Source: Phycisphaerae bacterium (GTDB taxonomy: Bacteria > Planctomycetota > Phycisphaerae > UBA1845 > Fen-1342). From it: DNA of 64,000 nt. The position numbers and the translations under genes are program-made. A model generated the notes under the pieces. That model did not search any database, was not told the origin of the DNA, and was given only the letters and a program-made list of their open reading frames with translations. The stretch spans positions 1-64,000 of the forward strand of contig JASFQK010000025.1 of the NCBI GenBank assembly GCA_050115495.1. Reading direction: 5' to 3'. Shown here one piece after another: positions 7,631 to 62,516 of this stretch; within the stretch, counting starts at the first letter, position 1; each line of letters starts with the position of its first letter.

Positions 7631-7633
7631 GAT

Positions 7634-8680: not shown

Positions 8681-8705
8681 CCGCGTTTCCGCCGGCTGAC
8701 GACTG

Positions 8706-9725
<1,020 letters not shown>

Positions 9726-9851
9726 GAACATCTCCCTCTGGGCCCCACCCGCCGCCCCGGCCGATCGGTTCGGCATGAGTCGGGGAAACCCGCCGAATCA
9801 TAGCTGACGAAGCGTGAAGCCGCCAAGGGCCGGGGGACGATCCTCTCCGGC

Positions 9852-36038: not shown

Positions 36039-36053
36039 GTCAGCCCCTCGCCG

Positions 36054-36563
36054 TCAACCGCGTGACCAGGACGGTCCGTGCATCCCGTGCCGCTGCGCCA
36101 GGGGCACGATGAACGTGGCCAGTGCCGCCACCAGTGCTCCCGTCAGAGACAGCACCAACGCCGACACGAGCAGTCCGCCCAGACCGGCGCCGGTGGCATC
36201 GAGCACGTAGCGCAGGTGCAGACCAAGCAGTACCTGCCCCGGCAGCGCCGCCAGAAAGCAGATCGCCAGTCGTATCCACCACAGCGTGCCGTTGACGCGC
36301 TCGCGCAGCACGGTCAGGAAATACGCGGTCAGCCCGAGCGCAAACGCGTGCGCCCCCAGCGGGCCCTCGGTCATCAGGTCGACACCGAAGCCGATGATCC
36401 AACCGGCCAGCCGCGCCTCGGCGAGCGGTGCGGCCAGCCCGTAGATCAGGGCCAGGGCGAGCAGCAGATCGACGCCGTACGGACTCGCCAGACCCAGCCA
36501 GTGCAGGCCGGTTTGCAGCACGAGCGATACCAGCAGCGCTGCCAGCAGTCCCAGCCAGGTCAT
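36054..36563 (-). CDS. mreD: Rod shape-determining protein MreD-like membrane protein
   Basis: 169 aa with ~5 TMs; LQT...DLLL...GWIIGFGVDL...PLGAHA pattern. ATGA overlap with the upstream lipoprotein. Confidence 0.7.
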   Translation of the reverse strand: MTWLGLLAALLVSLVLQTGLHWLGLASPYGVDLLLALALIYGLAAPLAEARLAGWIIGFGVDLMTEGPLGAHAFALGLTAYFLTVLRERVNGTLWWIRLAICFLAALPGQVLLGLHLRYVLDATGAGLGGLLVSALVLSLTGALVAALATFIVPLAQRHGMHGPSWSRG

Positions 36564-37177
36564 GGTGCCGGGCTCGCCGGCGGCGGCTCCGCGTTGGCCG
36601 GCTCATTCGGCTCCGCCGGCCGATAGCCGATGGGGACGGGCACACGGAAGCGACGCGGCGTACCCTCGATCACCCGTTGGTCCAGCCGCTCATAGCCGAA
36701 GACGATCTCGACCTGCTTGCCGACGAGGTCGACGCCCGCCGGCCAGCGCAGGGGGAACCCGTACTGGTAGCCCAGCTTCCGCTCGTAGCGGACGCGCCAC
36801 TGCATCGCGTCGTGCTCGTTCATTTCCCAGCCGTGGACGAAGTCGCGCGTGTAGCGTCCGTCCGAGCCGCGCTGCACCGTGTACAACCAGACGAGAACCT
36901 TCCCGGGGACGAACGCCCCGCGCTCGGTCGCCGCCGAGTGGAAGAAGACCGAGGACTTGAAGCCAATGACGATGCCGTCGTTGTCGCGCAGCCAGGGGTC
37001 GCGGGCGTAGAAGCAATAGACGGCGGTGATGTCGTCGTGCGTCTTGATGCGGTGCACGTCGATCTCACCCATGCCCTGTCCGCCGCCGGACGGCGCGGTA
37101 CAGGCCGACAACCCCAACAGGCAGGCGGCCGCGAGCGCGACCGCAACGCAGTTTCGGCAAGACGTCAACGTGGGCAC
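36560..37177 (-). CDS. Lipoprotein of unknown function (pilotin candidate)
   Basis: Lipobox LSAC; GGAGG and GTG start 12 bp after the secretin stop. Confidence 0.75.
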   Translation of the reverse strand: MPTLTSCRNCVAVALAAACLLGLSACTAPSGGGQGMGEIDVHRIKTHDDITAVYCFYARDPWLRDNDGIVIGFKSSVFFHSAATERGAFVPGKVLVWLYTVQRGSDGRYTRDFVHGWEMNEHDAMQWRVRYERKLGYQYGFPLRWPAGVDLVGKQVEIVFGYERLDQRVIEGTPRRFRVPVPIGYRPAEPNEPANAEPPPASPAP

Positions 37178-37189
37178 GGCGGCCTCCGG

Positions 37190-40100
37190 CTAGTCCTTGC
37201 TGGCAAACAGGCTCATCGGCACATCGTACGAGTTCGGGTCGTAACGCAGCCCCAGGTCCCGCGGCTCGAGCCGGACCGGCGGCAGCGGACCGTACTGCTC
37301 CTCTTCGGTGCCCTGATCGGTGGGCTCACCGCTGCGATAGGGCCCCAGCAATTCGCCGCCGTCGACCGGCATGAGCTCTTCCGGGCGAACGCGCAGGCCG
37401 CGCATCAGTGGATCGGTCTTCACCTTGTCCGGGATGATGCCGGCATGGTCGCGGGCCTCGATGGAAAGCTCGCGGTAATCCTCGACGGTGCGCACCACGC
37501 GCGGCGTCAGGATGACCAGCAGCTCCGAGCGCTTGTGGTCGTCGGTCTGGAATCGGAACAGCGGCCCGAGCAGCGGCAGGTCGCCCACCAGGGGCACCTT
37601 CTGCTCGGTCTTCGACTCGCGCGTCTGGATCAGGCCACCGAGCACCACCGTCTCGTTGTCCTGCACGGTGACCACGGTCTCGGCGACGCGCTCGTTGAAG
37701 ATGGGGGCGGTCAGGCCCTGGCCGACGGCGATCGTCGAATCGCTCAGGTCCGACACTTCCTGGCGGATCTCGAGGCGGACGTAGCCGTCGGGGTTAATCT
37801 GCGGCGTGACCTCGAGCTTGATACCGACGTCGGAGCGCTGCACCGAGGTCGAGATCTGCCCGCCGGTGGTGGTCTGCGTCCCGGTCACGTAGGGCACGCT
37901 GTCGGTGACGCTGATGCTGGCCGGCTGGTTGTCCATGGCCACGATGTGCGGGCGGCTGAGCACGTTCAGGCTGTTCTCGCTCTGCAACGTGTGCAGCAGG
38001 AAGTTGAAGTCACGCCCGGTGATCGTGAAGGTGAACCCGCCGAGACCGGCCCCGGCGGCGCCCACGTCGGTCCCGCCGACGTAGTCGAACGTCGTCGTGT
38101 CGTCGAGCCCGGCTTTGACGTACTGGAGATCCTGGAAGGCGAACTCGACGCCCAGCTCGAGCGAGTTGCCCATGGACACCTCGACGATCAGCACCTCGAT
38201 GCTGACCTGCGGCGGGCACTGGTCGAGCTCGCGCACCATGCGCAGGATCTCCTCCTCGCGCCGCGGGCTATAGCTGAGGATGATGCGGTTCGAGGCCTCG
38301 TAGGCGATCGCCCCGACCTCGCTCTCCTGCCGGACGGCCAGCGAGATGTCCTCGCCCAGCTCGTCCAGCCGCTGCTGCTCCTGGTCGCTCCAGTCCTTCA
38401 CGGCGGTGGCCAGGTCGGCCGCCACCATGTTCCGCGGCGGATAGACGATCGTCTTGCGATCGACCATCGGCACCGTGTCCAGTTGCAGGATTAACTGCTC
38501 GACCAGGTCGAGATAGCCGGGCGTGCCGGCGGCGATCACCGAGTTCGTCCGCATGTCGGTGGTGAAGCTCACTTCTTCACGCCCACCGCCCGCTCCGCCG
38601 CCGAGCGTCAGCTCACGCTCCGATTCGTCGCTGCCGCTGCGGCTCCCGCCGGACTGGCCGGCCGTCCGCCGCTCGAACAGCTCGTTGAGCATGTTGACCG
38701 TTTCCTCGGCGTCGGCGTTCTTCAGGGCGAAGATGCGAATGCGGGCCGCGTCGGGCGGCACGTCGATCACCGCCACCAGCGACTCCATCAGGGGCATGCT
38801 CTCCGGCGGCGCGATGATCACGAGCGAGTTCGTCCGCAGGTCACCGATGACGGTGACGTCGCCGCGCATGGCCTTCAGCGTCTCCAGGCCCTCGCCGGGA
38901 TTCTCACGCTGGAAGAGCAGCATGACCTGCTTCTCGTTCGCCTGCGTCGAGCGGCCGCTGCTGCCGCCGCTGCTGCCACCCACCGAGCCGCCACGACCTT
39001 CGAGAATGTTGCTCAGCACGTCGCTGGCTGACTCGGCATCCGTCTGCTCCAGCTTGAAGATCCGCACGATCGCCCCGGTGCCCGGATCGGTGTCGTCCAG
39101 ACGCCGCGCGAAGTCGGCGATTTCGGCCACCAGGGCCGGCGGACCGAAGGCCACGACCGAATTCGTCGAGGGATCCGACGTTACGGAGACGTCGACGTCG
39201 TTGTCGCCGACGTTTTTGAAGATGGTCTCCGCCGCCTTGGCGACGTCCTCCGCCGAACCACGCCGCAGCGGCACGATCTTCATCATGCGGCCAAGCTCGT
39301 TGGGCCGATCCAGCAGATCGACCCAGCGGTCCAGGTTCACCATGTCCTCCGCCGACGCCGCCATCAACAGGCTTTCCGAGAGCGGATCGGAGGCGATGTG
39401 GATCGGCGTACCCTTGAGGTTCGAGTCCTGCTCCTTGAGCGCCGTGTCGACCAGGTCCTGGAGCAGCGTGGCGATGTTCGCCGCGCTGTTCAGCTTGATC
39501 GGCCGCACCTTCATGACCACCGTCGGGTCGAACTGCTGGTCGAGGTTGTCGATCAGCGCCTCGGCCTCGGCCAGGTAGTCACGCGTGCCGGTCAGGATCA
39601 GCGAATTGCTCCGCGCGTCGGCGATGACGCTGAGCACGTCCTTCGCCTCGGAAGACTGCTCCTTCTCGGCGTCCTTCTTGCGGTCGAAGAGCTCTTCGAG
39701 CAGCCCGGCGAGCTTCTGGGCGTCGGCGTGGCCCAGCCGCCGGTAGCGCGTCGCCACCACACGGTACGGGTCCGGCGCGTCCAGCTCCATCGCCAGCTCC
39801 TCGATCATGTCGTACACGTCGCGGGTGGCGAAGACGACCAGCCGATTCGAGCGGTCGTCGGGGATGATCACGGCGTTGTCCCGTGACTCGTTCTTGCCAC
39901 CCAGAGCCTGCGTGCGCTGCTCCAGCAGGTCGCTCAGCTTCTCCTGGAGCGACGTGGCCGGGATGTTCTTCAGCTCGATCACGTACGCCCGCATGCCCAG
40001 TTCCTGCGTGGGCTTGTCCAGTTCGGCGATCAGGCCGGCCGCCAGCAGCACCGCGTCCTGCCGCCCGATGACGATCACCGTGTTGCTGCGCACGTCGTGC

Positions 40101-43100
40101 TGCACCACCACGTTGTAGGGCAGACCCTTGCCAGTCACGCCCGGCGGCACCGGCGGCAACACGCCTTCTTTGAAGCCCTGGCTGTCGCCCTCGCTGGGCC
40201 GCATCAGCGGGCTCTTGTCCTTGAACACTTCCTCGAGCAGGCTGGCCACGTCCTCGGCGCTCGCGTATTGCAGCGAGATCGCCCGCAGCTCCGTCTCCGC
40301 TCCGATCGGCAGCGTGTCGAACACCTGCACGATCTCGGTGAGGGCCTCGTTGTTCTTCGGCGTCGAGAAGATGATCAGCGAGTTCGTGCCTTCCTCGGCG
40401 ACGATGCGGATCGGCCGCTCCAAATCGAGCTCGGGCAGCTCGCGCCCGTCCGGCATCCGCAGCTTGATGACGCTCACGTACGGCTTGGCGGCCCGGTCAC
40501 CGCCGCTGCTCGCCTCGCGGGCGGCATCCTGCTCCGCCTCGATCATGTCGGTCAGCACCTTGGCGATGTCCGTGGCCTGACCGTTCTGGAGCTGGATAAG
40601 CATGGCGTCAGCCCGCACGAAGCTCGCCCGGGCCTCGTCATCCTTGATCTCCACGTCGTACGCTTCGAGCATGCGCTCGATGTCGGCCACGTCCTGCAGC
40701 GTACCCACGACGAACACGCTGTTCGAACGGTCGTCGGCCTCGATCGTGGCCTGCGATTCCTTGGGCACCTCGCGCTGGTCGTTCAACTTCTCGATGATCG
40801 GCCGCAACTTGGCCACGGCCTCCGACGCCCGCACGTGCTGCAACGGCACGCAGCGGAAGTCGGTCCGGTCCGTCGGATCCAGATCCAGCTTCTCGATGAG
40901 CTCGGCGATCTGCTCCATGATCGTCTCCGAGGCGGCGACGATCAGGGCGTTGCTGCGACCCTCGGCGTTGATGCTGAACTGCTCGTCGATGCCGGTGACG
41001 TCGATGCGAGCCTTGATGGCCGTCTCGATGACCGGGGCCAGGGCCGTCGCCTTGGCGTTGTTCACGTAGAAGACCTCGACGAGGGCCTGCGGCGCGGTCG
41101 CCTCCATCATGATCAGAATCTGCTCGATGAAGTCGATGTCGGTTTCGTCGCCCGAGAGAATGACCTGGTGGTCATCGATGGCCGTGACAATCACGTCGCC
41201 GCGCAATTCGCCGCTGATACCGGTGATGCCCTCGACGACGGGCTGCGTCTGCGGCGCGTCGGTGACCGGCTCTTCGGCGGCCGGCTTCGGCGTCGCCTTG
41301 ACCGGCGTCGTTCGGACGGGCGCCGGCTGGGCCTTCGGCTGTTTGTCCGCTCCGGCGCGGGGCCGCTGGGGGCGAGCCGGCGTCGTGCCGCGCGGTCGCG
41401 GCTTCGGCCCGGCCTGCGGTGGGTCATCCTCGCTGTCGTCGCTCAGCCACTGCCCCACCAGCGCCGCCCCAACGCTCGGCTGGAGCATCGTGACGCTGAC
41501 GTATGGCGCCAGGCCCGCCGGCGTCGGTGCCGGCCAGAGCGACTCGCGCGTCTCGCGCATGTTCGGCCAGGTGGCGTCGCCGCGGCCGCGCGACCGGCGG
41601 GACGACCCGCCCGAGCGCGTCGGCGTGCTGCGCGAACCGCCCGACGAGCCGCGGCGCTGCTGCAACTCGTTGATGAGATTCTGCACGTCCTGTGCAGAAC
41701 GTCCGCGCAACTGAATGACGCGCGTTACCTGGCGATCAGCCTTAACCGCAGCGAGCTGGTCCACCACCATCTGAACGCGTCCGAACAGGATCTGGTCGCC
41801 GCCGACCATCAGAGTATTCGTGTAGAGCTCGGGTTCCACCGACACGCGACGCGCCGTACGGCCCGTGCGCTCGGCGTCCTGCTCCTCGCTTTCGTTGACG
41901 ATGCGCTCGACGTTAGTGGCCAGCCGCTCGACGTCCTGACCCAGCGGCACCTTGATCACGGCGATGTTCGGGCTGATTACATCCGGGTGGTCGAAGCGCT
42001 CGACGAGTCCGCGAATCTCCTCGATGTCACGCGGCGTGCCACGCACGACCAGCGTCTGGTTGTTGTCAAAGGGGACCATCTGCGGGCCCGTGCTCTCGCC
42101 GGCCGCCCCGCGTCCACCGCTGCCCCGCCCACGACTGCTGCCACCGCTCTGCTCGCGCTGGTCGATGAACTGCCAGATGAACGAGGCGATCTCCGTCGGC
42201 TTGACGTTCTCCACGGGGATGGTCGCGATCTGGAACTGGATCGATTCCTCATACATGTCGATGACCTTCTCGGCCACGAAGTCAATATCATCCGACCGGC
42301 CGAAGACCATCACGGCATTGGTGCTCACGTCCGCGGTGGCCTGTACATCCAGCTCCCGCGCGGACATCGACGTACCGCCACCCATCATGCTCATCATGCC
42401 CCGGCCGCCGCCGCGGCGCATCGAGCCGGCACTTTCGCTGGAGCCGCCGGAGGCGTAGCTGTTGATCGCCTCGGCGACGACTTCGGCGTCGGCCTTGTCG
42501 AGCACGAAGACGCGGAAGTCACGCCGCATGTCGGCCGGCGTCTCCACGTCGATCGTAGCCAGCACGCTCTCCACGAAAGCGAACGTCTGCTGCGAGCCGA
42601 CGACGATGATGCTCTTGGTGCGCGTATCGGGCACCACGGTGAACGGGTCGAAGCCGAGCTCCATGCTGCGACCGCCGCCGCGCCCGCTGAAGCTGTTCAT
42701 CTGCACGAACTGCATGAGCGCGTCCTGCAGCGTGGCTACCAGCGACTCGGGGTCGGCGTATTGCACCGCGAAGCGGCGAAGCTGCATGCCCTCGTTCGGC
42801 TGATCCAGCGTGGCGACGACGTCCTCGATCTGGAGGAAGGTGGGATCGGGGGCGCGCACGAGGAGCTTCTTCGAGTTCTTGTCGCCGATGATGACGAGGG
42901 AACCGCCGGTGCTGCCACTACTACCACGCGGTCCGCGGCGGCTGCTGGTCGCCGCGCCGGTGCCGCCGAACATCTCCAGCAGCTTGTCGGCGAGCTCTTC
43001 CGGATTGGCGTAGATGACGTCGATTTCGCGGATATCGCGCTTGTCGCCCAGATCGAGCTCCTCGATCTTCTCCAGGACGATCGCCCGCTTGTCGGGCGTA

Positions 43101-46100
43101 CCGAAGACGACGATGACGTTGCTAGTCGGCTCGGCCACGATGCGCAGATCCTGGCTCGCGACCGAGGTGTTGCCGCCGCCGCCCCGCCCCGGGCGCCCCG
43201 TCGTTCCGCCGGCGTAGATCGAACTGACCACGTCGGCGATCGCCGACGCGTCGCCGTACTTGCAGGCGTACGTCTCGGCCTCGGCGATGGCGCCTTCGAT
43301 GTCCAGGCGCTGGATCTGGTCGAGGACCTTCTCCACGTCCTTGGCTTCGGCGGTGAAGATGATCGTGTTGGTGCGCGGGTCGCCGGAGATGGTCACCGGA
43401 CCCAGGGACCCGGGCGAACCGGCGCTGCCGCGACCGCCGCGGCCACCGCCGCCGCTCGTCGCCGCCGCGAAGACTTCCTGAAGCAGCGGCAGCACGTCGT
43501 CGACGCGCTTGGCGTTCAGCAACTCGTAGTGGTAGATGCCCACCACGTCGCGGCCTTCGAGCTGCTCGAGCTCGGTAATGACCTCTTCAATAAGCTGCAT
43601 GACCTCCGGCGGAGCGGAGACCATCAGCGAGTTGGTCACGGCGTTGGCCACAATCTCAACGCTCTCGACCTTGGCCCCGCCCTCCACGCCGGCGACGGCC
43701 ACCGTTTGCTGCTGAAGCATCTCCAGCAACTGCTGCTGCGCGTTGCCGCCGCGTCGGTTCGTGCGGGGGGCGCTGCTGCCGCGCCGTTGCTGGACCTTGT
43801 TAATGCCCAGCACTTCCCTGATGTTCCCAGCCGTCTCCTGGGCATCGAGGTTGTACAACTGGAAGACCTTGATCTCGACCTTTCCCGGCGGAATGTCCAA
43901 TTCGCGGAGAAGCTGCTTGATCTCGGGCAGGTCGCTCTCCTGGCACTTGATAATAAGGTAGTTGTGGCCCGGGTCGGTGGCGATGCGGACGCGCTCGCCG
44001 GAGGTGGTCCGGCCGCTCCGCCCGCCGGACTGCCGGCCACCGACCATGCCGCGGAACTGGTCCATCATGCCGCCCTGGTCGCGGCCCTGCTGATCGCCCC
44101 GGCCGCGCTGCATCATCTGCTGCATCTGCTGCTGCATTTGTTGCATCTGCTGCATCTGCTGCGGCAGGCGCAGCGTCTGCCGGTCGTTGAACATGATCTG
44201 CACGACCTCGGCGGCCGCGGCCACGTCGCCGTACTTGAACTGGAAGATGCGGATCACCTCGCCGAGGTCCATGTCCTCTTCGAGCATGTCGAGGACGTCC
44301 TCAACCTCGTCAACGTCTTCCTTGGGACCGTAGATGATCGCCGTGTTGTCCGGCTGTATGACGATGCGCGTCTGCTCCTTCTCCAGCGGCGGCTCCTGGC
44401 CGGCGGCCGGCGGCTCGCGCTTCGGCGGCTCCTGGGCCGTAGCAGGCTTCGCTGTCGGGGGCGACGGCCGCCGTCCCGCCGGTTGCGTCGTCGGCGGCTG
44501 ATCGTCGAACAACGCCTCTTCGAAGTCGTCGCCGAGCAGGGCCACGCTCACCGGCAGGCCCAGCTTGAACGGCTGCACGTCCTTGCCCGAAGAACTGCGC
44601 TGCGGTTTGTCCTGCCGCTCCCGGCGCGGCGTCCGCTCCGGCGCCGAGTTCTCTTCCTGCTCCCACGGCAGCGGCTCATCGTCCTCCCACAGCGGCTCGA
44701 CGATCGTCTTCCGCTGCGTCGGCGCCGGCATGTACTGGACGTCGAGGGTGTCACCGCCCATGCGCTCACGCAGGTACGCCACCGCCGCCTCTGTGTCGCC
44801 GGTCAGCTTGCGGATGCGCGCCACGTGCTCGGGGTGAATCCACCTCTCATGCTTGCGGATGGCGGCAACGATACGGTCGTACTCGTTCGGCCGGCACCGC
44901 ACCTTGATGTACTCGCCGAACCAGTCGGCCTCGATCACCGGGCCGCCCTTGTCCTCCGGCGGGAACATCTGGCGCACGTCCCAGGCGAGATCGAAGGCGC
45001 TGCCGCGGAGAACCTCGACGAAGAAGAGCTCCCGCCCGTTCGGGTCGGTCAGCCCGTCGCCCATGTCGATCTCCGCATCCAACTGCGCAACGAAAGCCTC
45101 AATCTGACGCATCTTGCGCTTGTTCGCCGTTATCAGCAGCCGATTGGCCGATTCGTCCGGCGTGATGGTCACCTTGTCCATCGCGGCCCCGCGGCCGCCA
45201 CTCGGGAACAACTGCCCCAGCGTGTCGGCCACGTCGTAGGCACTGCTGTTGCGAAGCTGAAAGATCTGGAGCTCGGGGATCACCTCGCTCTTCGATTCGA
45301 GCTCTTCGATCCACTTCTCCACTTTGGCCATGTCCTCCGGCATGCCCGCCAGGATGATCGAGTTGCTGGCGGCGTCGGCGGTGATCCGCACCGTGGCCGC
45401 GCCACTGCGGGCCCCGGGCGAGCCGGCAGACCGGCCCATCCCGGCAACCACCGTATTCAGCGACTGGCCCATCTGCACGGCATCCGCCTTCTCCAGGGCG
45501 ATGATGTGCACGATGTCGCCGCTCTCCACCTCCTGGTCGACCATGTTGATCAGCTCTTCGGCGAGCTTCTGGTACTCCTCCGGCGCCATGACGAACAGCC
45601 GGTTGCCGACCATGTCGGCCAACACAGCGGTCTGGGCCTGGATCTGCCGAGCAAGCTGACCCTCCGACTGGGCGATGCGAGCCTTGAGCATGGTGTCCAC
45701 GCTCTGGGCCACCTGCTCCGCACGCGAGTTCTTCAATACATACGTGCGGGCGTCGGACTCCGGCATCTTCTGGCTTTCAAACCCGTTGATCAGCCGGTCG
45801 ATGAACGGCATGTGATCCGGCGGAGCGATGACCAGCAGCGTATTGGTGGTCGGCTCCGGGAACGCTCCCGGCCGCATCTGCCCCCGCGCCGGCGCCGGCA
45901 GCACGCTGCTCAGATAAGCCTGCACCTGCCCCGCCACCTGCGCGGCATTGAGCACCTTCAACTCGTACACCTGGATCTTCAGGTCGGCCGGGGCCACGGC
46001 ATCGAGCTGCTCGATGATCGCGAGGATGTCAGTCATCCTGTCCGGCGGAGCCTGCACGACAATGCTGCGGCCGCCCGTAACGTTGAAGGAGATCTCCTGC

Positions 46101-49100
46101 CCCAGTTGGTTCCGCTGGCCGACGCGCCGCGGAACGTATTGGGAATTGAGGATGTTGAGCACCTCGTACGGATCAGCGGTCTTCAGCTCAACGATCTTCA
46201 TCTCGCCCCGGTGCGGATCGACCCGGCTCTCCAGGTCCATCGCCCACTTCTCAATCTCGTGGAAGTCCTCATCCCCGCCGCCGACGATGAGTGAGTTCGT
46301 CAGCGGTTCAGCCGTGATCTGCAGCGTCTTCGCGCGGATCTTCTCGTTGAAGATGTTGTTCAGGACACCGGCCACCGCGTTTGCATCCGCCTTCACCAGC
46401 GAAATCGTGCGCAGACGACTCCCCGCCACCGGCGGCTGGTCCAACTGCGCGATCAGCGCTTTGGCCATGGGCATCACAAACTTCGGCACGTTCAGCACGA
46501 CCTCATTCAGCCGTGGCTCAACCGTGATGCTGATCCGGTCCGCCACCGTCCGCGTTCGCGCCGATTGCGCGACCAGGATCTGGCGAAGCTGGTTACCGAC
46601 GTGCGCCGCATCGGCGTTGACGATCTTCACAAACTCCTGTTCTAGCGCGAGGTCCGCCGTCTCCTTCTCAAACGACGTGATAACCTCGTTGATCCGATCG
46701 AACATGTCCTTCGGCGCACTGACGATCAGCATCTCCGTCGTCTCGTCGTAAGAGAACGTCGCCCGCAGCCTGTCGGGGCGCGGCGGTTCCTTGGAGAAGA
46801 TGCTGTTCAGATTGCTCGCCAACTTGCGCACGTCCAACCCGACTAGCTTGATGGTCTTGTTGACAATGACCGGCTCCGGCTGCTTGACCGGCTCGATGTC
46901 GTACTGGTCGAGCAGTAACAGGCCCTGCTTGACCGCCACATCCGGGCCGTTGATCACCACGCGGTTGGTCCGGGCGTCCGCTGTCACCTTGATTTTCGAA
47001 GCCGCCTGGCGCCCCAGAATGCCCTGCATGTACGTCACGAGTTGCTCACGCAGCCAATTGGCCGCCTCGGTCGCCTGGGCGTAGTTCATCTGGCGAAACT
47101 CGATCCGCGGCTCCGTGCCCTTCTGCGCTTCGGCGTAGTCGGCGATGAGCCGGTCGATCTCCTCCTGCACATCCTTGGAGCATGTAACGACGATCGTCTC
47201 TGCCTGCGTATCCGCGTCAAAACGAGCCACGACGTTGTTGCGAGAACGGAAGGCGTTGCCCAGCTTGCTGGCGATCTGGGCCACGTCCGCCCCCTCCAGC
47301 TTGACCGTCCGAATGATGATCTCGCTACCCTTCGGATCGTCGAGCTGCGCGATGAAGGCCGAGATCTCAGGCATGACGTCCTTCGGCGCCTCGATCACGA
47401 CCTGCGGCCCGGAGGCTACCGCCTTGATCTGCGGACCGACCGGTCGCCCCCCCTTCCGGGATCCGCTACCGTACATGGCCTGCACGGCCGATGCCACTTC
47501 CCGCGACTGGGCGAAACGCAGCGTGAAGAAGCGCTGCTCGGGGAGCTGCGCCCCGACCGCCTCGTCGCGCTCCTGGGCGTAGGCCTTGATCTTTTCCAGC
47601 GTCGCCGTATCGGCCTGGACGATCAGCGAGTTCGTCACGGACTCGGCCTGAATGATGGCCCCGCCGCTTCCGCCGACGGCTCGCCCCGGACGACGGCCAC
47701 TCATGACCCCGCCGAAGAGCTGCATGGCTTCGGTGGCCACCTGCGTGGCGTCGGCGTGGGCCAGGGGCAGAATCTCGTAGCGGCTGCTGTCCTCGCGATC
47801 GAGGGCCTCGATCAGCGGCTTGATCTCGTCGATCGCCGGCTTGATGGCGTACAGCAGCACCGTGCTGCCGTCGGCCTGAATCAAGACCGCCGAGCGGCCC
47901 AGCGCCGGGTGCACGTACTGCCCGCGATACATGTTGTTCAGCAGGCTGGCGATGGACATCGCGTCGCCGAACTGCAGGTCGATCGTCTCCAGGCGCGGCT
48001 TGTTCGAGACCACGCCCTCGTCGAGCACCTGGATGATCTCCTCCACCTTGGTCCAGTCCTCGTCCGAGCAGACCACGATGAGCGTCTGGGCCTCGTCCAG
48101 CGGGATGATCTGGACCTCGGTCGATACCGCCGCCGGCGTCGCTCCGCGCATCCGGTTGAACCGTCCGCGCGTGGGCGTCATGCTGCGCGTGGTGCCGCCG
48201 GACATCAGAACGGGCGTGATGACCTCGGCCACGCGGCTTGGGGCGATGTTCTGGAGCTGCACCATGTGCCGCAGGCCCTCGGGCGTGGCCACGTCCAGCT
48301 CGGCGATGACCTCCTCGATCTGCTGCATCGCCTCGCGCTCGGCGATGATGTGGAACTGATTGTTCGCCTCGTCCAGCACGATGCTGGCCCCACGGCCGCG
48401 GCCGCCGGCCCCGATGTTCTGCACGATCTGGCTGATCGTGGGGAAGACCTGGGCGGCGTCGGCCTGCTCCAGCTTGATCGTCTGGAAGTTGCTCGGCTGA
48501 ACCTTGTCGATTGTCTCCAGCAGTTCGCGGACGCGCTTCTGACCTTCGGCGTTGGCGTAGACGATCAACGAGTTTGTCCGCTCGTCCGCCGCCAGCCGGA
48601 TCGTCTTCTTGGCCCGCTCGAACGTGCCCTCGGCCAGAATGTCCTCAGGCGAGGTCTGCGCCTGTGTGGGCGTCCGGGTCGTCCGTCGCGTCCGCGACGA
48701 TCCTCGCTGCTGCAACTGCCGCAGGCGCTGCCAGGCCGGCGTCGTAGCTGTTGAACCCTGCTCCTGCGAAAAGATCTTGTTCAGCAGGTCGGCGACGTCC
48801 GAGGCGTTGGCGTTCTCGATCACGATGACTTCGGTCTTGAACTCGCCGATATCCGGCTTCGCGTCGACCTTGTCAATAAGGTCCTGAATCTCCTCGAGCT
48901 TGGACGGGATGGCCTTGGCGATGATCGTGTTCGTGCGCTCGTCCGCGACGATGCGGATGTCCCGATCGTCGCCGCCCCCCGTCGTCACTGGAATCATCCG
49001 TCCGGTGCGCGGGTCGCGCTGCAGTTGCATCTGCGGACCGCTGCTCACCTCCAGCAGTTCACGGACGATCCGCTCGACCTCGCTCGCGTTGGTCTTGACG

Positions 49101-50140
49101 TTGAAGATCTTTACCTTTCGCGGGTCACCTTCCTTGATGGCGATGCGGTCCATCAGGTCCAGCACCTTCCGGATCTCCCGCACCGGGCCGGTCATCTTGA
49201 GCTGGTTGGTATCGTCCAGGGCCGAGATGGTCAGCCCCTCCGAAACCATCAGCTCGAACATGGACTGCACACGCGCCGCTGGATGCCCGGTCACAGTCAC
49301 GAACACCGTCACGAAGTCCATCGGCCGCGCCGTGGCCTTCTCGAACTCCTGCCGCGAACCGAAGATCTGTGATTCCTTCACATGCCAGGGCATCTCCGAC
49401 AGCAGCACGACGTAGATGTGGTGCTCTTCCTCAACGAACCGGAAACCCCGCATCTGCATGATGAGGTTCAGTTCGTCGATCGCCTCGTCCTTCGTGAACT
49501 TGTAGTCGCTGTGGTAGGTCAGCGTGCCGCCGATCGCCAGCATGTCCATGTCCGTCATCAGCGGCTTGCCGATGCGATCCGCGAAATACTGGATCACGTC
49601 CTCCCACGGCATGTCGTCGAAGTTGAACCACTCCTCGTCATCCGTGGCGTGGCTCACCGGCTTCGCCGGCCGCATCTCGACCTCGCGTGACCGCTGCATC
49701 TCATCCGGCCTGGGCACGGGCACCACCGGCTGCGTCGCGACGCCGTTCTCCGTCAAGAGCTCGCGCGGCGTGGCCGGCGGATATGGCGGACCGAAAAAGT
49801 CGTCATCCGGATCAACCGCCGGACGCTCCCCACGCGGCGTGACCACGTGCCCCGCCGGTTGTGAACCGGGTGCAGTCGGCGGCGGCTCGCCGGCTTCCTC
49901 CCGCTGCTTCTGCTCCTCAGCCTGCCGGGCCAGCTCCAGGAGGATCCGCATGTCCTCATCGGTATCCGGCTGGCTGGCCGGCTGCGAAGCCGGCGGCTGT
50001 TGCCCGCCGGCCTGCGCGTTCGGCGCCGCCGGCTGCGGTGGCTGGGTATCCTGCGCCGTCGCGAGGCCGATCAGGCCGATCGCAACGACCGCGCTGAGTA
50101 TCGCGCCCCATGCACTGTGTCGAAGGTCTTGCCGCAACAT
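37190..50140 (-). CDS. gspD: Giant secretin (GspD-like, ~4316 aa) with ~40 Secretin_N-like repeats
   Basis: Signal peptide, N0-like domain (FNFDDMPW), repeated I.AD.RTNSL-type units, and a C-terminal secretin domain (PPQVSIEVLIVEV, LSRPHI, GIKLEVTPQI, VVLGGLI, KVPLVGDLPLLGPLFR, ELLVILTPRVV). Confidence 0.93.
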   Translation of the reverse strand: MLRQDLRHSAWGAILSAVVAIGLIGLATAQDTQPPQPAAPNAQAGGQQPPASQPASQPDTDEDMRILLELARQAEEQKQREEAGEPPPTAPGSQPAGHVVTPRGERPAVDPDDDFFGPPYPPATPRELLTENGVATQPVVPVPRPDEMQRSREVEMRPAKPVSHATDDEEWFNFDDMPWEDVIQYFADRIGKPLMTDMDMLAIGGTLTYHSDYKFTKDEAIDELNLIMQMRGFRFVEEEHHIYVVLLSEMPWHVKESQIFGSRQEFEKATARPMDFVTVFVTVTGHPAARVQSMFELMVSEGLTISALDDTNQLKMTGPVREIRKVLDLMDRIAIKEGDPRKVKIFNVKTNASEVERIVRELLEVSSGPQMQLQRDPRTGRMIPVTTGGGDDRDIRIVADERTNTIIAKAIPSKLEEIQDLIDKVDAKPDIGEFKTEVIVIENANASDVADLLNKIFSQEQGSTATTPAWQRLRQLQQRGSSRTRRTTRTPTQAQTSPEDILAEGTFERAKKTIRLAADERTNSLIVYANAEGQKRVRELLETIDKVQPSNFQTIKLEQADAAQVFPTISQIVQNIGAGGRGRGASIVLDEANNQFHIIAEREAMQQIEEVIAELDVATPEGLRHMVQLQNIAPSRVAEVITPVLMSGGTTRSMTPTRGRFNRMRGATPAAVSTEVQIIPLDEAQTLIVVCSDEDWTKVEEIIQVLDEGVVSNKPRLETIDLQFGDAMSIASLLNNMYRGQYVHPALGRSAVLIQADGSTVLLYAIKPAIDEIKPLIEALDREDSSRYEILPLAHADATQVATEAMQLFGGVMSGRRPGRAVGGSGGAIIQAESVTNSLIVQADTATLEKIKAYAQERDEAVGAQLPEQRFFTLRFAQSREVASAVQAMYGSGSRKGGRPVGPQIKAVASGPQVVIEAPKDVMPEISAFIAQLDDPKGSEIIIRTVKLEGADVAQIASKLGNAFRSRNNVVARFDADTQAETIVVTCSKDVQEEIDRLIADYAEAQKGTEPRIEFRQMNYAQATEAANWLREQLVTYMQGILGRQAASKIKVTADARTNRVVINGPDVAVKQGLLLLDQYDIEPVKQPEPVIVNKTIKLVGLDVRKLASNLNSIFSKEPPRPDRLRATFSYDETTEMLIVSAPKDMFDRINEVITSFEKETADLALEQEFVKIVNADAAHVGNQLRQILVAQSARTRTVADRISITVEPRLNEVVLNVPKFVMPMAKALIAQLDQPPVAGSRLRTISLVKADANAVAGVLNNIFNEKIRAKTLQITAEPLTNSLIVGGGDEDFHEIEKWAMDLESRVDPHRGEMKIVELKTADPYEVLNILNSQYVPRRVGQRNQLGQEISFNVTGGRSIVVQAPPDRMTDILAIIEQLDAVAPADLKIQVYELKVLNAAQVAGQVQAYLSSVLPAPARGQMRPGAFPEPTTNTLLVIAPPDHMPFIDRLINGFESQKMPESDARTYVLKNSRAEQVAQSVDTMLKARIAQSEGQLARQIQAQTAVLADMVGNRLFVMAPEEYQKLAEELINMVDQEVESGDIVHIIALEKADAVQMGQSLNTVVAGMGRSAGSPGARSGAATVRITADAASNSIILAGMPEDMAKVEKWIEELESKSEVIPELQIFQLRNSSAYDVADTLGQLFPSGGRGAAMDKVTITPDESANRLLITANKRKMRQIEAFVAQLDAEIDMGDGLTDPNGRELFFVEVLRGSAFDLAWDVRQMFPPEDKGGPVIEADWFGEYIKVRCRPNEYDRIVAAIRKHERWIHPEHVARIRKLTGDTEAAVAYLRERMGGDTLDVQYMPAPTQRKTIVEPLWEDDEPLPWEQEENSAPERTPRRERQDKPQRSSSGKDVQPFKLGLPVSVALLGDDFEEALFDDQPPTTQPAGRRPSPPTAKPATAQEPPKREPPAAGQEPPLEKEQTRIVIQPDNTAIIYGPKEDVDEVEDVLDMLEEDMDLGEVIRIFQFKYGDVAAAAEVVQIMFNDRQTLRLPQQMQQMQQMQQQMQQMMQRGRGDQQGRDQGGMMDQFRGMVGGRQSGGRSGRTTSGERVRIATDPGHNYLIIKCQESDLPEIKQLLRELDIPPGKVEIKVFQLYNLDAQETAGNIREVLGINKVQQRRGSSAPRTNRRGGNAQQQLLEMLQQQTVAVAGVEGGAKVESVEIVANAVTNSLMVSAPPEVMQLIEEVITELEQLEGRDVVGIYHYELLNAKRVDDVLPLLQEVFAAATSGGGGRGGRGSAGSPGSLGPVTISGDPRTNTIIFTAEAKDVEKVLDQIQRLDIEGAIAEAETYACKYGDASAIADVVSSIYAGGTTGRPGRGGGGNTSVASQDLRIVAEPTSNVIVVFGTPDKRAIVLEKIEELDLGDKRDIREIDVIYANPEELADKLLEMFGGTGAATSSRRGPRGSSGSTGGSLVIIGDKNSKKLLVRAPDPTFLQIEDVVATLDQPNEGMQLRRFAVQYADPESLVATLQDALMQFVQMNSFSGRGGGRSMELGFDPFTVVPDTRTKSIIVVGSQQTFAFVESVLATIDVETPADMRRDFRVFVLDKADAEVVAEAINSYASGGSSESAGSMRRGGGRGMMSMMGGGTSMSARELDVQATADVSTNAVMVFGRSDDIDFVAEKVIDMYEESIQFQIATIPVENVKPTEIASFIWQFIDQREQSGGSSRGRGSGGRGAAGESTGPQMVPFDNNQTLVVRGTPRDIEEIRGLVERFDHPDVISPNIAVIKVPLGQDVERLATNVERIVNESEEQDAERTGRTARRVSVEPELYTNTLMVGGDQILFGRVQMVVDQLAAVKADRQVTRVIQLRGRSAQDVQNLINELQQRRGSSGGSRSTPTRSGGSSRRSRGRGDATWPNMRETRESLWPAPTPAGLAPYVSVTMLQPSVGAALVGQWLSDDSEDDPPQAGPKPRPRGTTPARPQRPRAGADKQPKAQPAPVRTTPVKATPKPAAEEPVTDAPQTQPVVEGITGISGELRGDVIVTAIDDHQVILSGDETDIDFIEQILIMMEATAPQALVEVFYVNNAKATALAPVIETAIKARIDVTGIDEQFSINAEGRSNALIVAASETIMEQIAELIEKLDLDPTDRTDFRCVPLQHVRASEAVAKLRPIIEKLNDQREVPKESQATIEADDRSNSVFVVGTLQDVADIERMLEAYDVEIKDDEARASFVRADAMLIQLQNGQATDIAKVLTDMIEAEQDAAREASSGGDRAAKPYVSVIKLRMPDGRELPELDLERPIRIVAEEGTNSLIIFSTPKNNEALTEIVQVFDTLPIGAETELRAISLQYASAEDVASLLEEVFKDKSPLMRPSEGDSQGFKEGVLPPVPPGVTGKGLPYNVVVQHDVRSNTVIVIGRQDAVLLAAGLIAELDKPTQELGMRAYVIELKNIPATSLQEKLSDLLEQRTQALGGKNESRDNAVIIPDDRSNRLVVFATRDVYDMIEELAMELDAPDPYRVVATRYRRLGHADAQKLAGLLEELFDRKKDAEKEQSSEAKDVLSVIADARSNSLILTGTRDYLAEAEALIDNLDQQFDPTVVMKVRPIKLNSAANIATLLQDLVDTALKEQDSNLKGTPIHIASDPLSESLLMAASAEDMVNLDRWVDLLDRPNELGRMMKIVPLRRGSAEDVAKAAETIFKNVGDNDVDVSVTSDPSTNSVVAFGPPALVAEIADFARRLDDTDPGTGAIVRIFKLEQTDAESASDVLSNILEGRGGSVGGSSGGSSGRSTQANEKQVMLLFQRENPGEGLETLKAMRGDVTVIGDLRTNSLVIIAPPESMPLMESLVAVIDVPPDAARIRIFALKNADAEETVNMLNELFERRTAGQSGGSRSGSDESERELTLGGGAGGGREEVSFTTDMRTNSVIAAGTPGYLDLVEQLILQLDTVPMVDRKTIVYPPRNMVAADLATAVKDWSDQEQQRLDELGEDISLAVRQESEVGAIAYEASNRIILSYSPRREEEILRMVRELDQCPPQVSIEVLIVEVSMGNSLELGVEFAFQDLQYVKAGLDDTTTFDYVGGTDVGAAGAGLGGFTFTITGRDFNFLLHTLQSENSLNVLSRPHIVAMDNQPASISVTDSVPYVTGTQTTTGGQISTSVQRSDVGIKLEVTPQINPDGYVRLEIRQEVSDLSDSTIAVGQGLTAPIFNERVAETVVTVQDNETVVLGGLIQTRESKTEQKVPLVGDLPLLGPLFRFQTDDHKRSELLVILTPRVVRTVEDYRELSIEARDHAGIIPDKVKTDPLMRGLRVRPEELMPVDGGELLGPYRSGEPTDQGTEEEQYGPLPPVRLEPRDLGLRYDPNSYDVPMSLFASKD

Positions 50141-50374
50141 CCGTGCACCTCTTCCTGATAAGGCGTCTGAGCCGTCCGTTCCAGAGCGGCTCTCAGGCAC
50201 TGTCATGAACGGCCGCCGCGCTGGCCGGCACGTCCCTCTCCCATCTCTCACAACAACTGATCCGGTCGGGGCCGTCCCCGGAATCCGTCCCGCCCCGAGG
50301 CCCCGGCGACCCGTCAGGTCATCAACTTATACTCACCAACCGCGCCCGGGTCGCACGACCCGGACCCACTCTGC

Positions 50375-51508
50375 TTAACCCGGAGCCAGGGCCAGCTCCA
50401 GCGCCCGCTGAAGCTCCGGCTCGCTCGCCGGATCCAGCTCCCGGCGATCCGCAAACGTGGCTCCCAGGTCGTACACGTAGTACTTGTATCCGAACGATCC
50501 ATCCCGCTCTTCCGCGGGCACCTGCTCCACCATGCCCCGCGGATAGACGAGCACCAGCGTCCCATCCCACACGGGCTCGTTGATGTGGATCCTCTCCGGC
50601 TCCAGGTCCAGCCGGTCATCGTCCCGCACGTACGCCGTCAACACGCCGTCCGTCGACGTCACGCCGATCAGTGTCTTGTTCGGCGGCGGCTCCTCGCGCA
50701 CCACCACTGGCCCCGGCTCCGGCCCGTCGTTGGCGATCGGCGGCGGGTCGGGCGGCGTTGGCGTTGTCCGCGTCGGCGTCCACAGTTTGAAGACGTTCTT
50801 GTCCAGAACGGCCGCGTACTCGTCCGACGGCCGCGGCAACCGCCCCTGCTGCGCCTCGTCCACCGGCTCAGGCCGTTCGATCGCGGCCTGCTCTACATCC
50901 TTGATCTCCGGCAGCACTAGCGCCGTCGCCGTCAGGGTGATGTTGAGCGGCGGGCCGTCCGGTCCGGCGGCCACCGGCTGCTCGTTACGCCGGTTTGACG
51001 GCGCGTTACGTGCCCCGGGGCCGCGGCTCCGCGACGACCGCCTGCTCTCCACCGCCGACAGGTTGATCTGCTCCAGGCGGGCCGGGTACTCCCGGCGGTA
51101 GAAGTCGCACAGGAAGCCGAGCACCTGCTTGAACGTGCCGCGCGTGGTCACCGACAGGCGTACCTCGGTGAAGTGCGTCGACTTCAGCGTGCGGGCCGGC
51201 AGGTTGCGGATCGTGCAGCTTTCGCCCAGCCCATGCGCATCGAGCAGGTTGCTCATGTCCTCGCGGAAGCGCCCCGCCCCGACACCTTCGTTGTGCGCCA
51301 GGGGCTGAATGGCCCCCCAGTCCTCGACTGCACGCTTGGCGTGCACTAGCCGCGTCTCCAGCTCCTGCTTGCGGCTGATCGCTGCCGTCATCTCTTTGTC
51401 GAGATTGTCCCAGCGGTCGATCACCCCCCACTGGATCGCCATCCAGAGCCCGCCGAGAACCAGGATGCCGGCCACACACGCAGCCAGGACTCTCTCGCGT
51501 GGATTCAT
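50375..51508 (-). CDS. GspM/PilO-like inner-membrane protein with a GspC-like C-terminal domain
   Basis: MNPRER + TM + coiled coil + ferredoxin-like segment (RGTFKQVLGFL), Pro-rich linker, then beta-rich LIGVT...AYV domain. Confidence 0.7.
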   Translation of the reverse strand: MNPRERVLAACVAGILVLGGLWMAIQWGVIDRWDNLDKEMTAAISRKQELETRLVHAKRAVEDWGAIQPLAHNEGVGAGRFREDMSNLLDAHGLGESCTIRNLPARTLKSTHFTEVRLSVTTRGTFKQVLGFLCDFYRREYPARLEQINLSAVESRRSSRSRGPGARNAPSNRRNEQPVAAGPDGPPLNITLTATALVLPEIKDVEQAAIERPEPVDEAQQGRLPRPSDEYAAVLDKNVFKLWTPTRTTPTPPDPPPIANDGPEPGPVVVREEPPPNKTLIGVTSTDGVLTAYVRDDDRLDLEPERIHINEPVWDGTLVLVYPRGMVEQVPAEERDGSFGYKYYVYDLGATFADRRELDPASEPELQRALELALAPG

Positions 51509-51538
51509 CAACACACTCCGTAGGCAACCACCGTGGGC

Positions 51539-53134
51539 CTAGAGCTTCTTGAGCTTCTGCTTGCGGGCCTTCTCGCGCGCTTCCCGCTCTTCCAGGTGCT
51601 TCTGCAGGGTGCGCAGCTGCACCTCGACGTCCACCGCCTTGCGGAAGTCGCCGTCGCGGCTGGTCACCGTTCGCAGGCTGCCCTGCTTGGCCAGGTACGG
51701 CCGCACGCCGTCGACCTCGAGAGCGTTCAGCGCCGCCACGAACTGGCCCGGCACCTCCCACTCCGTCGCCAGCACCTTCTTCAGCGTCATCTTCGCCTGC
51801 CGCGCGTCCAGGGACATCTGCTGCACCAGCATGTCCTTGCCCGGCTCCACGGCCGCTTCGGCCAACTGCCGCAGGTGCTCCGGCCAGACGGCGTCCACCT
51901 GCCAGTCCTCCACGGACTCGACCATGTTCTCGATCTTGACGTAGCTCTCCAGCTCTTTGCGAATCTTGGATGACTCGCTCCGGATGGTCCGCAACTCGGC
52001 GCTGCGCCGCATGTAGAGCGACGCGTCCGTCACCGCCGCCGCCACCAGCACGACCCCCGCCGCCATCGCCCCCATCCGCAGCCGGCGCTTCAGCACCGCC
52101 CGCGGCGGAACCGGCTTCTTCGGATTCAGAAAGTCGATCGCCAGCGAGCCGTCCCGCCCCAGTCCCCAGGCCAGGCCCAGCGGTGCGGCGAAGGAACGCA
52201 GCTTGACCGAGTCCTCCACCGGCGCGCCCAACGCTTCCGTCGGGTCGAACAGCATGCCGCGCACGCCGAAGCGGCGATCCGCCGCCTCCAGCAGCGCCGC
52301 CTCCACGCCCGTTCCGCCGGCCACGACGATGCGGTCGATGACCGCCTCCGGCTCGTTGGCCCGGTAGGCCTGCAACGTGCGGGTGATCTCGACGGTGAGC
52401 TCGCGTACTGCCGCCTCGACAGCGTCGTCGGCGCCTTCCAGGTCGGTCACGTCGGCCAGCGACGTCAGCCGCGAATCCTCGGTCGACGCCTCCGCCGCCA
52501 TCGGTACGGTCACGTTGGCCGAGCGGGCGAAGACCAGTTGCCCGCTGATCATGATGTCGATCTCGGCCGTGGTCGGGCCGACGTTCACGAAGAGCACGCG
52601 CTGGTCGGCGAGACCGGCCAGATGATTGACGCTGACCAGGCTCGAATAGGGCCGCAGGCCAACACGGGCCGCGGTCAGCCCGGCCGCCGTGCAGGTGGCC
52701 TGCACCGCTTCGAGCGCCTCGCGCGGCACCGCCGCCAGCAGCACCTCCGTGGTCAGGCCGCGGTCATCGCGGGCCCGCACCACGTAGTCGATGGCCGCCC
52801 CTTCCAGCGGGAAGGGCAGCTCCTTCATCGCCTGGAACCGCACCGCTGCGGCCACCTCATGGGCCGGCGTCGGCGGCAGCGTCAGCCGATTGATCACCGC
52901 CTTCTCACGCGGGATGTCCACCACTGCCCGCGTGTGGTGCCAGTGGTGGCGGCGCACCATCTGCTGAATGAACTCGCCCAGCGCCTCCGGGTTCTCCACG
53001 TCCACCGTCTTCGGAATGCGGTGCGAGTGGGCGTCCTCCAGCGTCATCTGCCCGCTACCCAGGCGAGCCACGACCAACCGGAGCGACGACGCGTCCCAGT
53101 CGAGGCACAGCACTTTCCGCGGAAGTTTCGTCAC
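51539..53134 (-). CDS. GspL-like protein (PilM actin-like domain fused to PilN-like TM/periplasmic part)
   Basis: LCLDWD, ELPFP, VLLAAV, VNVG, VAGG, GLAWG, IDFLNP, then TM and coiled coil. GTG start at 53134. Confidence 0.82.
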   Translation of the reverse strand: MTKLPRKVLCLDWDASSLRLVVARLGSGQMTLEDAHSHRIPKTVDVENPEALGEFIQQMVRRHHWHHTRAVVDIPREKAVINRLTLPPTPAHEVAAAVRFQAMKELPFPLEGAAIDYVVRARDDRGLTTEVLLAAVPREALEAVQATCTAAGLTAARVGLRPYSSLVSVNHLAGLADQRVLFVNVGPTTAEIDIMISGQLVFARSANVTVPMAAEASTEDSRLTSLADVTDLEGADDAVEAAVRELTVEITRTLQAYRANEPEAVIDRIVVAGGTGVEAALLEAADRRFGVRGMLFDPTEALGAPVEDSVKLRSFAAPLGLAWGLGRDGSLAIDFLNPKKPVPPRAVLKRRLRMGAMAAGVVLVAAAVTDASLYMRRSAELRTIRSESSKIRKELESYVKIENMVESVEDWQVDAVWPEHLRQLAEAAVEPGKDMLVQQMSLDARQAKMTLKKVLATEWEVPGQFVAALNALEVDGVRPYLAKQGSLRTVTSRDGDFRKAVDVEVQLRTLQKHLEEREAREKARKQKLKKL

Positions 53135-53168
53135 CGCCTGTCCCTTTCTGCACGCCACGGCAAACGCA

Positions 53169-62439: not shown

Positions 62440-62516
62440 GGGCGGCGAGGCATAAAATCCGACCGGAACGGGGACGGCCGACCGTCCACATGGAGTAAAC
62501 ACCGGAGGTATCCCGC

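Follow-up and report, generated by a model that had tools for sequence, protein, structure and literature searches.

A giant GspD-type secretin with an N0 domain, about 41 N-domains and two seams in a Phycisphaerae bacterium

Few bacterial channels have been studied as thoroughly as the secretins, for which six rings already count as exceptional. The window analyzed here is a 64,000-nt stretch of DNA from a Phycisphaerae bacterium (assembly GCA_050115495.1, contig JASFQK010000025.1, positions 1 to 64,000), whose minus strand carries a secretin-like gene of 4,316 codons. Is this gene real and intact and, if so, what might its product build in the cell envelope? The gene encodes an intact outer-membrane secretin of the GspD type, part of a type II secretion-like machine. 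Its product consists of a signal peptide, a probably disordered linker, an N0 domain, about 41 N-domains of β-α-β-β-α order joined by short linkers, a barrel and a conserved tail. A first reading made without database searches (hereafter, the sequence-only reading) had proposed a single-barrel secretin carrying N0 and about 41 N-domains. That much stands; however, the array is not uniform, and two seams that interrupt it were overlooked. The seams are new here.

The open reading frame (ORF) occupies 37190..50251 on the minus strand. It is open from the stop at 37190 and has 4,353 codons counted from the first GTG (50251). The likely start is the ATG at 50140, with AGGAAGAGG 8 nt upstream, giving a protein of 4,316 residues, the same length as the public gene call P0002; the single uninterrupted ORF proposed earlier at 37190..50140 has exact coordinates. 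Residue numbers below follow the GTG-started 4,353-residue frame (P0001), in which the ATG is residue 38. The sole strongly hydrophobic stretch, residues 47-65 (Kyte-Doolittle mean 2.04 over 19 residues), has basic residues before it and AQ|D after it, the layout of a signal peptide according to hydropathy scan and sequence, as had been claimed. The elements of the gene were assigned with Pfam, a hidden Markov model (HMM) iterated on the giant secretin itself (own HMM), AlphaFold2 models and VIA-align superpositions:

37190..50140, minus strand: giant secretin gene, 4,316 codons from the ATG plus stop; frame open upstream to the GTG at 50251
50051..50140, minus strand: predicted signal peptide, residues 38-67 (basic n-region, core 47-65, AQ|D; hydropathy scan)
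49649..50050, minus strand: Pro/Gln/Glu-rich linker, probably disordered, residues 68-201 (sequence; no domain match by Pfam or own HMM)
49400..49648, minus strand: N0 domain, residues 202-284 (AlphaFold2 model and VIA-align)
49130..49315, minus strand: first N-domain after N0, divergent, residues 313-374 (weak own-HMM match, AlphaFold2, VIA-align)
45074..49111, minus strand: 17 consecutive N-domains, Q01-Q17, residues 381-1726 (own HMM)
44402..45073, minus strand: seam 1, residues 1727-1950 (own HMM and hydropathy; domain assignments by eye)
41747..44401, minus strand: second half of the seam-1 domain (1951-1992) and N-domains Q19-Q27 (own HMM)
41099..41722, minus strand: seam-2 split N-domain, residues 2844-3051 (AlphaFold2, VIA-align)
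41444..41512, minus strand: hydrophobic island within the seam-2 insert, residues 2914-2936 (hydropathy and homologue comparison)
38219..41077, minus strand: 11 N-domains, Q29-Q39, residues 3059-4011 (own HMM)
37490..37987, minus strand: secretin barrel domain, residues 4089-4254 (PF00263)
37193..37489, minus strand: C-terminal tail, residues 4255-4353 (homologue consensus lines; SYDVP motif at 37217-37240)

The HMMER domain count that had been suggested as a check returned one match to the secretin profile PF00263, at residues 4089-4254 (175.9 bits, cut-off 27.5, profile positions 2-169 of 169), in agreement with the single C-terminal secretin domain claimed before, and 33 Secretin_N stretches with 990 bits. 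Among the NCBIfam models, GspD (TIGR02517) scores best, with 1082.3 bits against a cut-off of 351.35, a total inflated by 18 matched stretches; the best of these, 3823-4263, spans profile positions 148-600 of 600. The PilQ model TIGR02515 reaches 335 bits (cut-off 284), far under the GspD score, and the SctC model 297 bits. Pfam reported no AMIN domain in the giant secretin.

The N0 domain is recognized by its fold, although its sequence score against PF21305 (21.2 bits) lies under the cut-off of 27. Residues 202-284 superpose on the N0 of GspD from enterotoxigenic Escherichia coli (ETEC; 4jtm_A) with a Z-score of 10.6 and a root-mean-square deviation (rmsd) of 2.5 Å over 80 of 81 residues, and the model matches 3oss_D over 77 residues with an rmsd of 1.9 Å, which bears out the N0-like domain of the sequence-only reading. 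A phmmer search with residues 195-380 against PDB sequences gave chance matches only (E 0.77 and 1.7). Two AlphaFold2 models were made, each from an alignment of 26 full-length homologues; in the N-terminal one the alignment was scrambled over the last 76 residues, and model residues 13-200 were used.

The own HMM finds 41 matches, 39 with independent E-values below 1e-11 and two weak ones. The strong matches represent 37 whole domains and two half-domains. One weak match is the N-domain at residues 313-374, modeled in the order β-α-β-β-α and superposing on 9k8v_A over 59 residues (Z 8.1, rmsd 1.8 Å). The other (~3013-3051, with the model helix extending to 3052) forms, in the AlphaFold2 model, one N-domain together with the half-match at 2844-2875. 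The total is N0 plus 41 N-domains, as the HMM and the models give it and as the count by eye had put it, with two elements near seam 1 placed by eye, namely the 1.9-bit domain at 1740-1802 and the leading half of the domain that seam 1 splits.

Within the repeats, all inserts of at least four residues fall at one site, the α1-β2 loop (after profile nodes 29/32), which holds 300 of the 334 inserted residues and is rich in G, R, S and Q (also M). A Q/M-rich run within residues 2001-2120 exemplifies such loop expansion. Between domains, gaps do not exceed 17 residues at 37 of the 39 junctions, with ~7-10 residues between the listed matches; the two exceptions are the seams.

Could such a frame be an assembly artefact, a pseudogene or a chance ORF in GC-rich DNA? 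Such DNA does yield long spurious frames, and the opposite strand has one of 2,065 codons. In the secretin frame, however, the GC content at third codon positions is 0.89, with similar values in the neighboring genes, and all parts match secretin profiles. In the run from which this DNA may derive, a 31,934-nt contig built by a different assembler (second assembly) spans 36000-52000 with 0 differences, single-contig (closed) genomes of the same class hold frames of 4,557, 4,484, 4,631 and 4,634 aa, and DNA and protein identity between the repeats is too low for collapse or expansion during assembly. In two further wetland DNA runs, short contigs of identical sequence cover 25 and 19 of the 30 bins, and in a metatranscriptome 14 identical contigs fall in 14 of 30 bins, from the 5' part of the gene to its 3' end and in the upstream genes; bins lacking cover in these runs (X2-X4) carry no information. 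An apparent 'joint' in run X1, considered as a rearrangement, rests on 22-nt matches to another contig and was rejected. The assembly, profile and orthologue evidence refutes the artefact explanation, to which we give practically no credence, and the gene is no product of assembly, as the sequence-only reading had maintained.

The array is also old. The best match between repeats inside the giant secretin scores 21-40 bits, whereas in four orthologues 36-38 of the 39 repeats find their best match in the collinear repeat, mostly with 50-158 bits (lowest 39) and 29-77% identity. The last nine of Q29-Q39 are collinear with the most distant clade as well, and between Q13 and Q14 repeats have been gained or lost as blocks. 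Since the repeats match their collinear counterparts far better than their own neighbors, the expansion must be old, with every position under its own constraint; position-by-position conservation thus upholds the earlier view of an old, maintained expansion.

The two seams interrupt this otherwise regular array, each being an N-domain cut in its α1-β2 loop by an insert of 110-150 residues. At seam 2, a first-half match (2844-2875, profile positions 1-33) and a second-half match (~3013-3051) lie ~145 residues apart, so that a β1-α1 half is followed by the insert and then by a β2-β3-α2 half. In the AlphaFold2 model both halves have predicted local distance difference test (pLDDT) values of 84-94, the insert below 50, and the domain by itself superposes on InvG N1 (6pem_A) over 63 residues (rmsd 2.8 Å, Z 6.6). 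Because both halves fold together confidently and superpose on an N-domain, seam 2 appears to be a huge loop within a closed domain. Its insert consists, in order, of an RS/RG-rich basic stretch, a conserved hydrophobic island (2914-2936; Kyte-Doolittle mean 1.31 over 19 residues), an acidic stretch and a Pro-rich stretch. Of the 77 proteins P0002-P0078, 71 have a seam of this type at 9-12 repeats ahead of the barrel; the remaining six comprise the giant secretin itself and P0061, both missed because of the threshold used, and four truncated entries.

Seam 1 (1727-1950) comprises a possible divergent N-domain (1740-1802), a possible β1-α1 half (1808-1835) and an insert of ~115 residues. The elements of this insert come in the seam-2 order: basic residues, then a hydrophobic island with a 15-mer Kyte-Doolittle mean of 1.37, then an acidic, Pro-rich segment. 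The second half of its domain, residues 1951-1992, matches HMM positions 31-72 with 37 bits. Among the relatives, a lineage with the gene split at seam 1 was looked for and none was found. Frames of 2,475-2,602 aa in one family were considered as seam-1 splits and rejected, being complete secretins of 20-21 repeats with their own signal peptide and N0; two further candidates, P0076 and P0077, look like truncated gene calls. The P0077 call (2,409 aa, on a 1.5-Mb contig) begins inside seam 1 and lacks a signal peptide.

At seam 2, relatives with a split gene do exist. In nine genomes, which belong to three sister families, the frames measure just 1,487-1,843 aa. The three split loci compared (L027-L029) encode an array protein (2,747-2,787 aa) and, 170-240 nt further on, a barrel protein (1,655-1,744 aa); together the two reach the size of the fused giants. 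The array protein has 21-24 repeats and ends in a first-half match (β1-α1) plus a basic tail; the barrel protein, with 13-14 repeats, opens with a signal peptide that is followed by an acidic stretch and then a second-half match (β2-β3-α2). The hydrophobic island of seam 2 is the positional counterpart of the barrel-protein signal peptide, and the barrel-protein start aligns to residues 2991/3016 onward of the giant secretin with 28% identity (E 1e-38 to 1e-44). As the order of elements and this alignment agree, seam 2 is the translated-through counterpart of the split-gene junction. The split relatives thus share with the giant secretin the operon, the total size and a break in the α1-β2 loop at seam 2; they differ in that their two proteins are kept apart by a stop codon, 170-240 nt of spacer and a genuine signal peptide, where the giant secretin reads through as a loop. 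The two chains of the sister families might rejoin by complementing the two halves of one N-domain, which would make the tube modular.

Seam-bearing and split forms fall into one clade with 98% support in the Shimodaira-Hasegawa-like approximate likelihood ratio test (SH-aLRT), in a tree of 59 rows built from the last 800 residues by a quick method, with the seamless clade as root. In this tree, split, seam and seam-B lineages leave a three-way fork that does not separate split-first from fused-first. A further clade of giants with 38-64 repeats is mostly seamless. We infer that both seams are scars of gene fission or fusion.

The same observations bear on whether the full-length chain is cut at one or both seams, its pieces being held together by split-domain complementation as in the two-gene relatives. 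Processing into fragments stays in consideration because of the two seams, one of which is the site of a gene split in relatives. The basic, hydrophobic and acidic elements of the seam-2 insert mirror the gene junction of the split forms, which indicate that two chains are viable and whose sizes sum to those of the fused giants. However, the island is only moderately hydrophobic and lacks a clear A-x-A site, an internal segment behind a domain that has already been exported is in the wrong topology for cleavage by signal peptidase, and an in-frame start codon before the island is not conserved among the relatives compared. Cleavage at the seams therefore seems very unlikely to us.

The giant secretin is a typical member of a large family, giant only within the class Phycisphaerae among the genomes searched. 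A length-restricted search gathered at least 232 homologues of 2,394-7,618 residues, annotated only as GspD or 'secretin N-terminal domain-containing protein' and derived from metagenome-assembled genomes of Phycisphaerae or Planctomycetota. A separate search for related loci among genome contigs yielded two, both in metagenome-assembled genomes of Phycisphaerae, and no cultured carrier came to light. The 120 listed homologues have 17-64 strong repeats with the own profile, the lowest counts including gene calls that look truncated. In the class, 115 of 151 sampled genomes match residues 2950-4353 at E≤1e-30; among the matches listed, at least 51 of the 151 genomes have a frame of at least 2,000 aa and at least 41 one of 3,000 aa or longer, the longest having 6,169 aa. 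Across the phylum, of 301 genomes sampled, at least 12 match at E≤1e-70, these tallies being a floor since the first look was stricter. Eight of the matches come from the class, the genome of the window included (3,942-5,073 aa), and four from other classes (939-1,326 aa). The survey of secretin length against phylogeny that had been proposed for this locus thus confines giant frames to the class among the genomes searched. In one family of the class, the same operon (L032, L033 and L034) contains a complete secretin of 'medium' size, with 20-21 repeats and 2,509-2,593 aa. In literature listings and abstracts, we found no description of many-N-domain secretins in Planctomycetota, and the architecture does not appear there as already characterized.

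The giant secretin ends a conserved type II secretion-like operon, whose upstream genes lie on the same strand:

57816-59024, minus strand: gspF (Pfam T2SSF)
57333-57788, minus strand: gspG (Pfam T2SSG)
54728-55558, 55555-56616 and 56544-57242, minus strand: three pseudopilin-like genes (Pfam N_methyl)
53169-54728, minus strand: gspK (Pfam T2SSK_1st)
51539..53209, minus strand: PilM-like plus transmembrane protein, GspL analogue (PF11104, PilM_2; conserved in 8 of 9 loci)
50375..51514, minus strand: 379-aa membrane protein, candidate N0 partner (sequence and atlas leads)
36560..37177, minus strand: lipoprotein (lipobox L-S-A-C), candidate pilotin or accessory protein, directly downstream (sequence)

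The F-G-...-K-L-D gene order recurs in loci of other families, and in three other loci an unannotated ORF of 561-597 aa precedes gspF. PilP and the HR domain of GspC are the known partners of the secretin N0 in type IV pili (T4P) and type II secretion systems (T2SS), respectively. The 379-aa protein appears to be PilO/GspM-like in its N-terminal part and PilP/GspC-HR-like in its C-terminal part, with a Pro-rich linker in between, according to atlas matches that serve as leads only; with Pfam, neither the 379-aa nor the 205-aa neighbor gave a match even at E up to 5. The downstream lipoprotein is kept at the same place in three of the nine loci compared (L029, L030 and L031; 31-45% identity). 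It is predicted to be a β-sandwich, again with atlas matches as leads only. The tail of the secretin carries a D-x-x-S-Y-D-V-P motif (residues 4338-4345; 37217-37240, minus strand), conserved in the consensus of 26 homologues, which, judging from sequence, might be a pilotin docking peptide. Upstream of this motif the tail has a second one, Y-G-P-x-R-P. Neither the tail nor the lipoprotein matched S-domains or pilotin families known so far. Elsewhere in the same genome are five further secretin-domain frames of 544-988 aa (contigs C1, C9, C35 and C46). Together with 14 matches to the T2SSE family, they indicate that the genome encodes several type IV filament-type machines and that the ATPase of the giant system is unlinked.

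The operon raises the question of which machine the secretin serves. PilM and the PilO/PilP-like partners are homologous to GspL/M/C. The machine may instead be a type IV filament machine that extrudes or retracts a fiber, for adhesion or the uptake of polymers or DNA, with the long secretin as the fiber sheath. The inner-membrane partners are PilM/PilN- and PilO/PilP-like, the PilQ model passes its cut-off, and PilQ of Thermus thermophilus is a known many-ring precedent (PMC5745081). In planctomycetes, moreover, an enlarged periplasm and pili emerging from crateriform structures are discussed as an uptake system in passages of a 2025 review of the phylum, where the term 'secretion system' does not occur. 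On the other side, the GspD model scores highest, the operon encodes pseudopilins of the GspG and GspK types, and neither an AMIN domain (Pfam) nor a linked retraction ATPase was found. A filament machine thus appears improbable as compared with the type II secretion-like machine adopted above.

What might such a secretin build? In solved secretins, each N-domain position forms one ring of a 12-15-mer, and N0 meets the inner-membrane platform. By analogy, 12-15 protomers of the giant secretin would assemble with each N-domain position forming one ring, and ~42 rings of 3-4 nm each would be stacked under the barrel as a sleeve of ~125-170 nm. At its far end, N0 would dock on the PilP/GspC-like domain of the 379-aa inner-membrane protein, and the pseudopilus with its cargo would be led through the sleeve across a periplasm that is very wide or invaginated, much as the six rings of Thermus PilQ do on a smaller scale. 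Since N0 lies 41 domains from the barrel and its candidate partner is predicted to be anchored in the inner membrane, the array would have to bridge both membranes. The length estimate derives from Thermus PilQ, whose six rings and barrel are 350 Å long, termed exceptionally long in passages of that report (PMC5745081), and which we take as ~3-4 nm per ring. A three-domain model around seam 2, with the loop trimmed, superposes on N1-N3 of ETEC GspD (5zdh_A) over 189 residues (rmsd 4.5 Å, Z 11.6), and comparisons that include ExeD, EpsD and E. coli K12 GspD give 186-194 residues, rmsd values of 4.5-5.3 Å and Z-scores of 10.5-11.6, the rmsd for ExeD, EpsD and E. coli K12 GspD lying at 4.6-5.2 Å. 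The short linkers, this superposition, the position of N0 at the far end and a PilO-PilP-like partner encoded next door would indirectly support stacking. The stacked sleeve itself is in our view slightly favored, and the reading as a whole, which we regard as the best explanation, is on balance probable.

Several points weigh against the stacked sleeve. Ring formation by the mid-array domains is assumed by homology, the rmsd over three domains is moderate, and AlphaFold2 may echo GspD geometry learned in training. At 125-170 nm, a straight tube would be several times as long as an ordinary periplasm is wide; an array of this length could be housed only if the periplasm were very wide or invaginated, or if the array were bent or folded, and we found no imaging of the Phycisphaerae envelope in the literature. 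The disordered inserts of 110-150 residues at the seams could act as hinges, so that the array would not be one rigid tube. The sleeve does not account for the hydrophobic island, whose Kyte-Doolittle mean over 15 residues rises to 2.0-2.3 in certain homologues. Neither the operon nor the contig of the window encodes a GspE ATPase, all 14 T2SSE-family matches being on other contigs, and the metatranscriptome contigs give only a hint of transcription, as this type of library can contain DNA.

The array might instead be segmented, with blocks of ~19, 10 and 12 domains that fold back or angle at the seams into a shorter multi-layered, bent or cage-like structure, one that a normal envelope could hold. 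Both seams hold long inserts, with low pLDDT in the seam-2 model, the seam keeps a distance of 10-12 repeats from the barrel in 71 of 77 relatives, and a straight sleeve of the calculated length is hard to fit in a cell. Nevertheless, the model places the seam-2 insert in a loop of a closed domain, with a domain chain continuous across the seam, and the mostly seamless clade of giants indicates that seams are not required for packing many domains. We consider a segmented array unlikely.

The stacked sleeve could also be taken further. It might be the longest known periplasmic channel (~40 rings, >100 nm), modular, tuned to the width of the envelope by its number of repeats, and possibly with its loops as a filter in the lumen. 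In such a version, separately exported segments would snap together at the seams by completing the split N-domain, and the R/G/S/Q-rich loops, which share a single insertion site in the domain, might face the lumen and act there as a disordered, selective filter. This elaboration is tentative and, on present evidence, rather doubtful.

Among known systems, the T2SS secretins GspD/PulD/EpsD/ExeD/XcpQ (PDB 5zdh, 6i1x, 6i1y, 6hcg and 5wln; PF00263, PF03958 and PF21305; TIGR02517) have the same domain types in the same order. GspF, GspG, GspK and analogues of GspL/M/C are likewise encoded with the giant secretin, and the geometry of N1-N3 and of N0 (4jtm/3oss) is matched in the models. GspD, however, has three N-domains in ~650-800 aa, compared with ~41 in 4,316 aa here. 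The giant secretin further differs in its R/G/S/Q-rich loops at one fixed site, its two seams with inserts of more than 100 residues, a conserved SYDVP tail in place of a recognized S-domain, and the absence of gspE from its operon. In Thermus thermophilus PilQ (T4P, DNA uptake; rings N0-N5), extra rings lengthen the channel across a wide periplasm, in principle likewise, and in passages of their report its authors call the six rings 'one of the largest' characterized (PMC5745081); ~42 rings are proposed here, and PilQ is of the T4P rather than the GspD type and has no seams.

With 20-64 ring domains common across one class, the question becomes how such a machine fits into the envelope and works there. 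The giant family offers a natural series of tube lengths and could reveal a previously unknown envelope architecture in Phycisphaerae, and a domain that is split between two genes and then closed again is a natural example useful for protein engineering. As closed genomes of the class carry giant secretins, a direct test by cryo-electron tomography and proteomics is feasible.

The rest of the window contains housekeeping genes. Following the lipoprotein gene, 36054-36563 (minus strand) encodes a small protein with several membrane passes, whose match to MreD is weak (19.6 bits) and under the cut-off. A UvrA-like protein of 1,613 aa, ~1.7 times the usual UvrA length, is encoded at 15628-20469 (minus strand) and has UvrA interaction and DNA-binding domains. 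Genes for a MoxR AAA ATPase, a DUF58 protein and BatA/VWA proteins occupy 3479-9776 (minus strand), and a BatD-like gene lies at the end of the window (62499-63998, plus strand); together, these MoxR, DUF58, BatA and BatD-like genes represent an aerotolerance-type (Bat) gene set.

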